Counted from the stretch's first letter, positions 56,488-59,326 are shown. The stretch: DNA of 64,000 bases from Clostridiales bacterium (GCA_022508305.1 JAFLVM010000002.1:91729-155728), one strand, 5' to 3'. Notes: generated from the letters alone by a model not told the origin. Numbers and translations: made by a program.

Positions 56488-57966
56488 TCAATTTTGTTCG
56501 CTTTGTTCGTTATTTTCAATTTCTTTATCAATTCTGTCATTATTTTGTTGATTGTCTGTTGGTACTTGTTCGGTTTCTTTCTCTAATCTTGTTAAGGATT
56601 TGAAAAACATAATTGTTAAGACTGCGGCAACAATCATTGCGATAAAATCTGCTGCGGGCGCGGCGTACAGTATACCCTCAATTCCGAAGAAGATGGGAAA
56701 TACGGTAATAAGCGGAATAAAGCAGACGATATCTCTAATCATAGAGGAAATTACCGCGCGGATGGGTTTGCCCACTGCTTGGAAGAAAATGGACGTCATC
56801 TTGATTGTGCAGGTAAAGGTTACAAGGCTTAGGAATATGCGGAAGGTTTTTACGCCGAATTCCCAATAGTACTCGGGGTTGACTTGTTTGGGATCAGGGT
56901 CGCCGAACAAGCCAACGACAGCGCGCGGAGCAAGTTCAAACAGTAGTGTGGAAATCACGCCTATCACCACTGTGCAAAGCAGTATTCTAAGATACAGTCC
57001 TCTGACACGGTCGTATTTTTTCGCCCCCATGTTGTAACTTATGATAGGTTGACAGCCCAAAACGATACCCACTACGATATTTATTACAACGGTAAACACC
57101 TTACTTTCAATTCCGATAATAGCAATTGGAATGTTTTCGCCGTATTCCGACATGGCGCCGTACTCGGCGAGCATTATGTTGCAAACCAACGAAATAATGA
57201 CGATTGTCATTTGTGTAATAAATGAAGAAGCCCCGAGCTTCAACGCGTGCTTAAACTCATTGAAATCGGGAATTAGACTTTTTAAGTTAAGCTTGAAGGT
57301 TTTTGTTTTGAATATGAAGTAAATCAACGATACGACGAATGAAACTGTCTGACCTATTACGGTTGCCACTGCCGCGCCTGTCATTCCCCAAATGGGAATC
57401 AACACGGGGTCGAGTATGATATTGATAAGTGCGCCGCCGAGCATAGAAACCATGGAAATAGCAGGTCTACCGTCAGCGCGAATAACGGCGTTCATCATGT
57501 TGGACAGCATGTAAAAGGGGAAGAATGCCAAAATCCAATTGAAATATTCCACGGCGTAATCGATAACTATCTTGTCACGCGCACCGAACAAAGTGATAAT
57601 TTGTGTTTTCAGCGGAAAGAACACCGCCATGAGTACCAAACTAATGGCAATGGTAGCAACGATGCCTGTACCTATTGCTTTGTGGGCGTTTTGCGCATTC
57701 TTCCGTCCCTGACATATGTTTAGATAGGCAGCGCAGCCGTCGCCAATGCACCAAGCAAACGCTTGCGCAATGATAAATATCGGGAAAACAACGCCTGTTG
57801 CGGCATTGCCCAAGGCGTTCAATTCGCTGTTTCCGACAAAGATTTGGTCAACGATATTGTATAGCGCGCTTACCAAAAGAGATAGCACACATGGAATGGA
57901 AAATTTCAGCATCAGTTTGGAAATCTTCATTTCCCCTAAAAATTTTGATTTTTCTTCTTGTTCCAT
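56488..57966 (-). CDS. MATE family efflux transporter
   Basis: 492 aa. ISKLMLKFSIPCVLSLLVSALYNIVDQIFVG and a 12-TM pattern. SD GGAGG before ATG 57966. Confidence 0.9.
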   Translation of the reverse strand: MEQEEKSKFLGEMKISKLMLKFSIPCVLSLLVSALYNIVDQIFVGNSELNALGNAATGVVFPIFIIAQAFAWCIGDGCAAYLNICQGRKNAQNAHKAIGTGIVATIAISLVLMAVFFPLKTQIITLFGARDKIVIDYAVEYFNWILAFFPFYMLSNMMNAVIRADGRPAISMVSMLGGALINIILDPVLIPIWGMTGAAVATVIGQTVSFVVSLIYFIFKTKTFKLNLKSLIPDFNEFKHALKLGASSFITQMTIVIISLVCNIMLAEYGAMSEYGENIPIAIIGIESKVFTVVINIVVGIVLGCQPIISYNMGAKKYDRVRGLYLRILLCTVVIGVISTLLFELAPRAVVGLFGDPDPKQVNPEYYWEFGVKTFRIFLSLVTFTCTIKMTSIFFQAVGKPIRAVISSMIRDIVCFIPLITVFPIFFGIEGILYAAPAADFIAMIVAAVLTIMFFKSLTRLEKETEQVPTDNQQNNDRIDKEIENNEQSEQN

Positions 57967-57992
57967 ACAAACCTCCGATAGTTACACTAAAG

Positions 57993-58022
57993 CAAAAAAC
58001 GACACTTCGTCGAGTGTCGTTT
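57993..58022 (-). terminator. Intrinsic terminator inside the MATE leader, 26 nt upstream of the start codon
   Basis: 8-bp stem ACGACACU/AGUGUCGU, 6-nt loop, U6 tail. It lies between the promoter (58122-58150) and the SD. Confidence 0.75.
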
Positions 58023-58095
58023 GCATAAAAATACGACACCTGTGACCGCTCCGTACCGTAATCAGATTTACGCGCATTTGCGCCACATGTGTCGT
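57993..58095 (-). promoter_or_regulatory. Structured 5' leader of the MATE gene: three-way alternative pairing (attenuator or riboswitch candidate)
   Basis: On the minus strand, segment A is ACGACACATGTG (58095..58084), segment D is CACAGGTGTCGT (58044..58033, followed by AUUUUUA), and hairpin E is ACGACACU-CGACGA-AGUGUCGU plus UUUUUU (58020..57993). D can pair with either A or the left arm of E. Confidence 0.6.
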
Positions 58096-58121
58096 TAAGC
58101 TTTGTATATTCGTTTTGTAAA

Positions 58122-58150
58122 ATTATATCAAAATTTCAACCGCAAGTCAA
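58122..58150 (-). promoter_or_regulatory. SigA-type promoter for the MATE gene
   Basis: Minus strand: TTGACT (58150..58145), 17-nt spacer, TATAAT (58127..58122). Confidence 0.65.
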
Positions 58151-58199
58151 ATTTAATTTGACGTGCTACTCAAAAATTTCTTGCTGTATTTAGTAGCTA

Positions 58200-59183
58200 C
58201 TACAAGTTGTCTTTTTCGTTGTCAGATGGCGGTGTGTCGCTATCTGCATTGTCACTTTTGTGCTTGTGTCGCTGGTGGAGCGTTGGCGCAACCTCTACCA
58301 AAATGACCGCGGCAAGCACCAACAGCCCGCCTACAACCGTTTGCCAGCTGAAGGGCTCGATGAGTAGCGCCATTGAAAAGATTGCGCCTATTGCCGATTC
58401 GCAGCCCAGTATAAGCGACGTTTCGGTAGGGGGAACTATCTTTTGCGCGTATGTTTGCGCGTAGTAGGCAAACGCCGTTCCGCCGAAAATTACTATCAGC
58501 AGCTGCCACCAGTTGTCACCCACAGCCACGAAATCAATTGACGCGTAGCTCTTGCTCTCGAAAATTACCGAGTACAGCAACAGCAGTACCGCCGCAAACG
58601 CCACCTGCCAGAAGGTAAGCTGTACGCGGTCGATTGTGTTCTTTTTGAAGCTGTAGTCCGTCCAAAATATTTGCAACGCAAACACAATTGCGCACGCTAC
58701 GGTAAGTCCGTCGCCGACTAACGTGTTGGTTGCGCCCAGTTCGTCGACGTTGAAGTTGAGTACGACTAAGCCAACAACGGCTACGGCAACGCCGACAAAG
58801 CAAAACCAACCGGGGCGTTTTTTGTAGGCTATCCAGGTGATAAAGGGAACGTACATGACGTACGACGCGGTAAAAAAGCCGCTATGCGATGGAACGGTGT
58901 ACTTCAGACCTATCGTTTGCATCAAGAAGCCCGCAAAAAGCAACACTCCGCCCACGCCGCCGTACAACAAAACCTGCTTGTTGAGGCGTATTCTCTTGTT
59001 GAAAATGGCAAGCAAGCACAGCGCAGAAATACCGAATCTCAGCGTAAGCAACAGTGACGGCGTATCGTAGAATACGGCGTCTAACAGTTGGTCATTGAGT
59101 ACGAATCCCGCTCCCCAAAACAGTGCGGTCATCGACAGCATCACCAAGCCTATTGCGTATTGTTTTTTACTTGTCTTTGTCAT
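58200..59183 (-). CDS. DMT-superfamily (EamA-type) transporter
   Basis: Start MTKTSKKQYAIGLVMLSMTALFWGAGFV (ATG 59183). 10-TM pattern with two EamA halves. The longer ORF running to 59264 would run through the leader terminator and is rejected. Confidence 0.85.
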   Translation of the reverse strand: MTKTSKKQYAIGLVMLSMTALFWGAGFVLNDQLLDAVFYDTPSLLLTLRFGISALCLLAIFNKRIRLNKQVLLYGGVGGVLLFAGFLMQTIGLKYTVPSHSGFFTASYVMYVPFITWIAYKKRPGWFCFVGVAVAVVGLVVLNFNVDELGATNTLVGDGLTVACAIVFALQIFWTDYSFKKNTIDRVQLTFWQVAFAAVLLLLYSVIFESKSYASIDFVAVGDNWWQLLIVIFGGTAFAYYAQTYAQKIVPPTETSLILGCESAIGAIFSMALLIEPFSWQTVVGGLLVLAAVILVEVAPTLHQRHKHKSDNADSDTPPSDNEKDNL

Positions 59184-59188
59184 CTTTC

Positions 59189-59226
59189 TAAAAAAATAAC
59201 GACACACTAAAATATTAGTCTGTCGT
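59189..59226 (-). terminator. Intrinsic terminator inside the DMT leader, immediately upstream of the start codon
   Basis: Minus strand: ACGACAGAC (59226..59218), 10-nt loop, GUGUGUCGU (59207..59199), then UUAUUUUUUU. It sits downstream of a consensus promoter, and no upstream same-strand gene needs it. Confidence 0.7.
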
Positions 59227-59297
59227 TGAATTCCCGAGGCGAATGGACACGGGATTTCTCCCACATTTCCGTCGGTTATTTTGTTTTGTTACGATAT

Positions 59298-59326
59298 ATT
59301 ATATGCAAATTTCCAAATTTTGTCAA
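59298..59326 (-). promoter_or_regulatory. Consensus SigA promoter for the DMT gene
   Basis: Minus strand: TTGACA (59326..59321), 17-nt spacer, TATAAT (59303..59298). Confidence 0.7.

Follow-up and report, generated by a model that had tools for sequence, protein, structure and literature searches.

A Conserved Terminator-Embedded Leader RNA Upstream of Clostridial Exporter Genes: A Candidate Riboswitch-Like Class

Genes and Features at the Locus

The window, i.e., the whole 64,000-nucleotide stretch of Clostridiales DNA that was analyzed, carries on its minus strand a gene for a MATE family (MatE) efflux transporter of 492 aa (56488..57966), the ATG of which lies at 57966 and is preceded by the Shine–Dalgarno (SD) sequence GGAGG, read at 57976..57972. 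All window coordinates given here refer to the minus strand. Upstream of the gene, a promoter scan found a sigma-70-type promoter, TTGACT-17 nt-TGaTATAAT (58122..58150), with an 11/12 match. Its –35 hexamer TTGACT (58150..58145) was apparent from both the scan and a reading of the sequence, the –10 hexamer TATAAT (58127..58122) follows at a distance of 17 nt, and the scan added an extended –10 TG (58130..58129). Transcription would start near 58115, about 20 nt upstream of the first element of the leader, segment A. The gene farther upstream encodes an EamA/DMT transporter. The stretch from the EamA stop codon (58200) to the promoter of the MATE gene (58150..58202) contains no recognizable intrinsic terminator, so that any read-through transcripts from EamA would also meet the switch in the MATE leader.

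Direct reading of the sequence located every leader element of the original prediction at its given position on the minus strand, with agreement throughout. When folded, the 157-nt leader reaches –49.6 kcal/mol, relative to –36.1 ± 3.5 kcal/mol for shuffled sequences (z = –3.9), and none of 200 shuffles was as good. Within it, a conserved RNA motif spans 58028..58100 and is matched by a covariance model over its full length (model positions 1–72 of 72) at 84.1 bits; because the model was derived from relatives and matches 58100..58028 at E = 3.6e-18, the region is no chance structure. The motif is about 60–75 nt in size, with clear conserved and variable parts, and is laid out as a helix P1, formed by AACGACACAUGU with (C)AUGUGUCG and followed by a U-run, with hairpin P2 and a conserved core inside.

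Segment A (ACGACACAUGUG, 58084..58095), the 5′ strand of P1, is nearly invariant across families. It is followed by hairpin P2 (GCGC-AAAU-GCGC, 58072..58083), which varies in sequence among relatives and keeps its pairing, and then by the near-invariant core GUAAAUCUGAUUACGG (58056..58071), which forms hairpin P3 (GUAA:UUAC, hexaloop AUCUGA). The original prediction had left the sequence between A and D as filler, and it is there that comparison reveals this core. Segment J (UACGGAGCGGU, 58045..58055) pairs in the minimum-energy fold with GUGG and the 5′ strand of P2, as the upper part of a rod-like terminator. Segment D (CACAGGUGUCGU, 58033..58044) provides the 3′ strand of P1 and has the left arm of a further hairpin, E, as an alternative partner. 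Directly after P1 comes a first U-tract, AUUUUUA (58026..58032), which is probably the primary termination site. Hairpin E with its U6 (57994..58022; stem 58022..57997) was listed by a terminator scan as a second intrinsic terminator, and its left arm, ACGACACU, copies segment A. Although E had been proposed as the terminator of this leader, the primary terminator in most relatives is A:D with the first U-run.

Occurrence across Genomes

The upstream regions of MATE orthologues in relatives share a common block consisting of AACGACACAUGUGG, a hairpin, and CGUAAAUCUGAUUACGG. A strict search pattern, GTGG-N4-16-CGTAAWTCYGRTTRCG, was found in 11 of 401 sampled genomes of the same order, with the reversed pattern, used as a control, giving 0. 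In a collection with one genome per species, the strict pattern matched at least 80 loci. Among the matches listed, about 51 were Clostridia or Bacillota records, and roughly 29 of the 80 listed loci were chance matches in coding DNA of unrelated phyla, a number close to that calculated for a pattern of such information content. Carriers among the matches listed included Lachnospiraceae, Oscillospiraceae, Acutalibacteraceae, Butyricicoccus, Gemmiger, Faecousia, Ruminococcus, Eubacterium, and Acetatifactor, as well as Clostridium bovifaecis (CP046522) and Desulfosporosinus nitroreducens. In the true matches, conservation reaches past the pattern, to AACGACACAUGU on the 5′ side and, on the 3′ side, through a variable segment to (C)AUGUGUC(G) with a U-run directly after it.

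A covariance model (A1 and R1) built from 30 of the sequences found by pattern gave 68 matches at E ≤ 0.01 over the fetched loci among the matches listed, 66 of them on the forward strand and 2 being reverse-strand echoes. With stricter filters, 150 genomes drawn from across the phylum were searched with the covariance model, which matched nothing beyond the window's own genome, and the motif is therefore largely a feature of Clostridia. All searches together place it in at least about 60 Clostridia genomes of several families and at least three orders. The core GUAAAUCUGAUUACGG is unchanged in copies from Lachnospiraceae, Oscillospiraceae, Clostridium (C. bovifaecis), Desulfosporosinus, and others, which is the high conservation of junction and unpaired nucleotides across distant taxa that is characteristic of riboswitches. 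One 154-kb contig labelled as a Corallococcus sp. MAG (JAMPEJ010000005.1) has the same leader and the same MATE start as a Clostridia genome (G004, loci L003/L036), and the contig was probably mis-binned into the myxobacterial MAG.

A pattern-independent test was provided by a protein search of 400 genomes of the class with a membrane protein of ~190 aa that often lies downstream of the motif. Protein similarity alone identified 16 close homologues, 11 of which had the motif upstream; four had no motif, all from one genus, and one was cut by a contig end. The copies obtained in this way show that the third position of GUGG in the search pattern is not fixed, the element being GU-N-G with G, U, or A as N.

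Covariation

Covariation was measured on a model-based alignment of 65 distinct sequences, which are related to one another; the search pattern fixed the core and left the P1 and P2 columns free, and the alignment (A2) was fitted to the model. P2 is paired in 98–100% of copies (98% in the 65-sequence alignment), with 47 sequence-by-pair cells changed on both sides (CG to UA/AU, GC to AU/UA, and CG to GC). P1 is 81% paired in the same alignment, and here the U-A pair of AUG/CAU is replaced by A-U (AAG/CUU) or C-G (ACG/CGU). Altogether, 14 pairs change on both sides, as opposed to 5.9 ± 1.3 in shuffles, and 0 of 500 shuffles reach 14, a statistic that is inflated by kinship; in slid-partner controls, the signal collapses. 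The compensatory changes in P1 and P2 are those of a conserved 5′-leader structure, as in riboswitches, and the conservation and covariation that the original prediction had proposed to look for in orthologous leaders are present in orthologous and non-orthologous leaders alike.

P3 (GUAA:UUAC) and its loop AUCUGA are almost without variation, and P3 thus rests on sequence conservation instead of covariation. Within P1, segment A is invariant whereas its partner D is variable and often mismatched, with an A.G mismatch in 19 of the 30 seed sequences. This asymmetry suggests that A has a role beyond its pairing with D, possibly in a bound state of the RNA. Inspection by eye of the conserved core revealed no Watson–Crick partners for strand A.

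The same comparison bears on the possibility that the leader is an attenuator controlled by ribosome stalling on a mini-ORF, MWRKCA (AUG UGG CGC AAA UGC GCG UAA, 58068..58088), as the original prediction had offered. Ribosome-stalling attenuators are common before resistance genes in Bacillota, and a ribosome stalled on this frame, the AUG of which lies inside segment A of the window, would free D. Among 56 leaders, however, the AUG (58088 in the window, in the P1 strand) is missing from 12, which have AAG, ACG, or AGG at this place together with a compensating change in the partner strand. The reading frame that the AUG opens varies among copies and spans between 1 and more than 60 codons, an SD-like sequence precedes it in just 4 of the 56 copies, P2 is not a multiple of three in length, and the peptide has no conserved sequence beyond what the RNA core dictates. 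Leader-peptide attenuators have a conserved, translatable short ORF with a ribosome-binding site over the switching segments; here, the mini-ORF is an accidental frame that is not conserved, and attenuation by a leader peptide is consequently rejected as the least credible of the alternatives.

Variants and Neighboring Leaders

In addition to the type 1 copies, a type 2 flavour was recognized that reads ACGUGUGGC, P2, GCGUAA(A/U)UCCGGUUGCG, and then GCCACACGU with a U-run. This flavour is found before the MATE genes of Oscillospiraceae-like genomes and has a weak covariance-model score. At one locus (L034; G136:C13, about 1490–1640), a single MATE gene is preceded by a tandem pair of complete type 2 copies, both of which have a terminator. 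At another (L004/L037; G039:C47), a type 2 copy lies about 280 nt upstream of the gene in L004, and a further variant, GCGUGUAGCUCUUUU...GGCGUAAAUCCGGC AAAAGAGCUGCACGC, is found just before the gene; it keeps GUAAAUCCGG and is without the 3′ strand of P3. Upstream of the MATE orthologue of L006 (G027:C29), the leader reads GGUGUGUAGCC GAUAAAA GG UGUAAGUCC AGCUU GGGACUUACACC U6 and may represent a third flavour. Its small CC/GG hairpin would take two G's at the base of the terminator stem, a plain antitermination geometry, and the covariance model gave no match to this leader.

Many relatives (e.g., L067, L071, L083, and L107) carry UUUUUUU-GYGC-AAAAAAA-GGAGG just after the motif, in which the spacer is G(C/U)GC and an A-run as long as the U-run stands directly before the SD. 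Given their equal lengths, the U-run could fold back on the A-run in read-through transcripts. The window is without this feature.

The EamA/DMT gene of the window has its own perfect promoter and a different conserved leader motif (59184..59326), CCGAcGG-AAAUG-U-GGGA GAAA UCCC-GUGUC-CAUUCG-CCUCGG, followed by the terminator AACGACAGACUAAUAUU...GUCGUU with a run of Us. Superficially this leader is like that of the MATE gene, with AUGUGG, a small hairpin, CGU, and an ACGACA terminator; as a copy of the motif, it was rejected on finding no match to covariance model R1 even at E ≤ 10, and it has no Rfam match. The EamA leader was present in all 12 orthologue leaders inspected and in 5 of 6 genomes of the genus, and shows one compensatory change (AUG/CAU to ACG/CGU in L191) among loci L181–L197; at the stringency used, a search of about 295 further genomes of the order gave no copy. 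It appears to be a separate, genus-restricted conserved leader.

Two Exclusive Folds

Fold analysis of 56 type 1 leaders uncovered two conserved folds that exclude each other. The minimum-energy fold places P1 next to the U-run in 54 of the 56, and the covarying P2 hairpin is present in only 6 of these folds and absent from 50. In its place, J, which lies between P3 and D, base-pairs with both GU-N-G and the 5′ arm of P2, generating one long, nearly continuous stem that is capped by P3 and constitutes a strong intrinsic terminator. Forcing P2 and P3 costs 8.2 kcal/mol on average across the 56 leaders.

Selection also acts on the rod pairing. J pairs more stably with the P2 of its own leader than with those of other leaders (mean –6.8 vs. 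–5.2 kcal/mol), the own-P2 rank having a median of 0.23 with 15 of 44 in the top decile (Wilcoxon p = 2e-7, for leaders that are related to each other). The window's own J:P2 pairing is weak and unremarkable, with a rank of 0.76. In leaders with a long J, this segment instead carries a 7–9-nt complement of the invariant core GUAAAUC(UG), which would take the place of P3.

A platform fold that is exclusive with the sensor fold, as in riboswitches, is found here in the rod terminator and the P2 hairpin, and the fact that a hairpin and its competitor are both maintained beside a terminator is the anatomy of a switch. The exclusive folds, the U-run geometry, and the covariation of J with P2 together uphold the proposal of a conditional, riboswitch-like terminator. 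A simple thermodynamic account of antitermination was tried and fails: with P2 and P3 locked, P1 is still favorable by about –8 kcal/mol in nearest-neighbour energies.

Hairpin E

The three-way alternative pairing of A, D, and E that had been proposed for the window holds and recurs in its lineage. A second hairpin with a U-run follows the first in 12 of the 56 leaders, 11 of them from the window's order and one from an unrelated Clostridiales genome, and in each of the 12, D is complementary to the left arm of E, with pairing energies of –6 to –11 kcal/mol. In the window, this pairing amounts to –10.8 kcal/mol, and just 0.2% of shuffled left arms are as good. Since the left arm of E copies strand A, the second terminator, itself sensor-less, would come under the control of the first switch by way of D, and such mimicry makes sense only if there is a state in which D has been made and is unpaired from A. 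The pattern fits a second terminator slaved to the first through strand D. On the other hand, E may have arisen neutrally, as a decayed copy of the P1 stem from which the sensor was lost, and would then be no designed relay.

A second copy of the MATE leader was found by the covariance model in the same assembly, on a 508-nt contig (G000 contig C39:330-480, plus strand; L042) that has the end of a signal-peptidase-I-like gene upstream and stops 40 nt into a near-identical MATE start (MEQDEKSKFLG). This copy represents a paralogue or, alternatively, a strain variant that was collapsed during assembly. Its sensor is 100% identical to that of the window, and J, D, and E differ in sequence, D being GUGUGUCU and E being GGCACAGA...UCUGUGUC, with the D:A and D:E-left pairings retained.

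Genes Associated with the Motif

Wherever downstream genes were readable, the gene had the same orientation as the motif and the promoter lay before the motif. Among the matches listed, about 34 MATE genes follow the motif. About 13–17 copies found by pattern among the matches listed, together with the 11 copies from the protein search, precede the gene for the ~190-aa membrane protein, a multi-pass protein that starts with MPRNQFQRM and has a sub-threshold match to DUF2798 as its sole family match. Two further copies among the matches listed precede DHA2 MFS efflux genes, one of whose products has CBS domains, and three type 2 copies among the matches listed precede a gene for a 79-aa protein. 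No metabolic enzyme genes were present at the loci with readable downstream genes. As is typical of riboswitches, then, the motif is associated with several downstream genes that are non-homologous and functionally related.

Some of the exporters carry additional domains. In Lachnospiraceae (L067, L075, L085, and L119), the MATE protein is about 656 aa long with a C-terminal cytidylate-kinase-like domain (PF13189), and the CBS domains of the MFS protein in L051 are likewise C-terminal. Such fusions of exporters to nucleotide-binding domains could be a clue to what is exported or to an additional level of regulation.

Upstream neighbors vary, and include EamA, signal peptidase (C39), an Fe-S aldo-keto reductase (G017), and a tRNA. 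A sigma-70-like promoter was found 5′ of the motif in every relative looked at, with similar TTGACT..TAnAAT promoters lying 25–35 nt upstream of the motif. The varied upstream neighbors and the element's own promoter mark it as a cis-regulatory element of the exporter genes and rule out that it merely serves as the terminator of the upstream DMT gene, a possibility that the original prediction had allowed for.

Proposed Mechanism

It is proposed, with a probability of roughly 0.6, that the MATE leader is a copy of an uncatalogued class of cis-acting, riboswitch-like RNA, in which the sensor lies inside an intrinsic terminator and a compound switches the gene ON. In the free RNA, J would first pair with the 5′ strand of P2 together with GUGG. 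Pairing of D with A would follow and yield a long rod capped by P3 and ending at the U-run, where transcription would stop. The sensor fold would consist of P2, P3, and the invariant nucleotides GUAAAUCUGAUUACGG, and would most likely be stabilized by a small-molecule ligand. Once it is stabilized, J could not invade and the terminator would be left incomplete. In the window's lineage, the freed D would pair with the left arm of E and thereby disable the second terminator, letting polymerase enter the MATE gene. If P1 forms instead, D would be occupied and E would terminate those transcripts that escaped the first site. The MATE gene would in this way be switched ON by a compound that the pump presumably exports.

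The ON direction is suggested by the folds. Selection maintains a terminator in the ligand-free fold, and formation of P2 is incompatible with the upper half of that terminator, so that read-through would be expected in the P2 state. An ON switch would also fit exporter genes. The persistence of P1 at about –8 kcal/mol, when P2 and P3 are locked, means that either a kinetic effect or a tertiary role of strand A must be assumed for P1 to be prevented in the bound state. Conceivably, the continuous zipper that runs from P3 through J into P1 would be lost, or the bound state would engage strand A.

An OFF switch would reverse this logic, with a ligand stabilizing a three-way junction of P1, P2, and P3, P1 and the U-run then acting as terminator, and the ligand-free RNA being expressed. 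Such a reading is improbable, even though P1 closes a conserved junction in the manner of purine or TPP aptamers and is still favorable once P2 and P3 have formed, and hairpin E is compatible with both directions. The minimum-energy fold of the ligand-free RNA is already the P1-containing terminator in 54 of 56 leaders, with a selected upper helix J:P2, so that both states would terminate under an OFF reading, and no ligand-free antiterminator was found. All of the regulated genes are, moreover, exporter-like, and the known riboswitches before exporters (guanidine-I to -IV and fluoride) switch ON.

It is somewhat easier to imagine, and still unlikely, that the conserved RNA is bound at its core or at segment A by a trans-acting protein or another RNA that controls the terminator, for which PyrR, TRAP, LicT, and ANTAR proteins are precedents. 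The long invariant stretches ACGACACAUGU and GUAAAUCUGAUUACGG would suit such an effector, as would an antitermination step that goes beyond thermodynamics and a segment A that is more strongly conserved than its partner D. Against this, no conserved regulator gene lies beside the motif, the upstream neighbors being different ones, and its presence in several families and at least three orders, always before unrelated exporter-type genes, is typical of metabolite sensing. The loops are also unfit for ANTAR proteins. ANTAR antiterminators consist of a pair of tandem hairpins, each closed by a hexaloop in which position 1 is A and position 4 is G; an antiterminator of this protein-bound type was considered for the present leader and rejected, as the G of the P3 hexaloop AUCUGA occupies position 5 and the loop of P2 varies from 3 to 7 nt. 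The conserved motif, the covariation in P1 and P2, the two exclusive folds, the terminator geometry, and the associated genes are observations; a small-molecule effector, its identity, the ON direction, and the way in which P1 would be kept from forming in the bound state are inferred.

What the Motif May Mean

The motif is a well-supported orphan riboswitch candidate with an unusual platform, i.e., a class that would be new within a known kind of regulator. In its broader form, the proposal is about an even bet: that gut and anaerobic Clostridia possess an undescribed riboswitch class which responds to a small toxic compound, perhaps a gut metabolite or a xenobiotic of cationic or aromatic nature, and switches on at least three unrelated exporter families by means of a terminator-embedded aptamer, with a sensor-less second terminator slaved to it by a shared strand in some lineages. 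If the element is indeed a riboswitch, its ligand would name the natural substrate of many MATE, MFS, and DUF2798-like exporters in the dominant gut Firmicutes. Such substrates are unreadable from protein sequences, and may include drugs and diet- or host-derived toxins. Since the motif is short, with clear conserved and variable parts, the question is directly testable. The architecture is also a compact design for tight transcriptional switches, with a sensor in the terminator and an optional second terminator that operates through strand mimicry. Finally, the motif adds a family to the orphan riboswitch candidates that are absent from Rfam.

Comparison with Known Systems

The original prediction had matched the leader to no recognized riboswitch class and had suggested a search of Rfam. 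Rfam 15 (4227 models), searched with permissive thresholds, gave no meaningful match in a 4-kb region, in a 166-nt slice, even at E ≤ 10, or in the loci of 13 relatives, and the assessment stands. The best overlapping matches were noise, e.g., ylbH with 17.7 bits against 50 and miRNA models with about 13 bits. In full-text literature that is readable without subscription, searches with the core sequences and with DUF2798 or MATE together with riboswitch turned up no account of this RNA.

Guanidine-IV (the mepA motif) and Gd4v are terminator-based leaders before MATE and other exporter genes in Firmicutes; guanidine-IV consists of two hairpins with a loop–loop pseudoknot and conserved ACCGGG and UUAGGUC-type loops, and Gd4v is an orphan class enriched in gut bacteria (PMC7736828, PMC9788692). 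The present motif shares with them the MATE gene family, the terminator-based platform, the occurrence in Firmicutes and gut habitats, and the presumed ON direction, and might be thought a diverged member of one of these or of another known class. This is very improbable, however, as no Rfam 15 match was obtained in the window slice (E ≤ 10) or in the 13 relatives' loci, and the published guanidine-IV and Gd4v alignments read GCGCCACCGGGUGC...UUAGGUCU... and are without the present core; 7-mers of the core occur there solely within non-homologous flanking sequence. Identity with guanidine-IV or Gd4v was rejected on this absence of both an Rfam match and the core. There is no resemblance in sequence or structure, P1 enclosing P2 and P3 with the core GUAAAUCUGAUUACGG here, and the present motif is without the association with sugE, GNAT, or transaminase genes.

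Attenuators of the ermC, cat, and bmrCD type are alike in having three or four exclusively pairing segments, terminator/antiterminator logic, and a resistance-type gene; what is conserved in them is a translated short ORF with an SD, whereas here it is the RNA fold. Tandem or double-terminator riboswitch platforms, reviewed in PMC9481103, likewise feature two successive termination sites in one leader, and locus L034, with its two complete motif copies, is a similar case. In contrast, the second terminator of the window comes without a sensor and has a left arm that duplicates strand A.

Functionally, the nearest known counterpart is the HMP-PP riboswitch (thiS motif), described as a “terminator-embedded aptamer”, which acts as an OFF switch on thiamin genes (PMC6478431). 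The two differ in that their consensus sequences are unrelated, no Rfam model matches the present motif, and exporter genes are here under the control of what would be an ON switch. In both, the sensor lies inside the terminator hairpin instead of upstream of it, and the aptamer and terminator folds share nucleotides.
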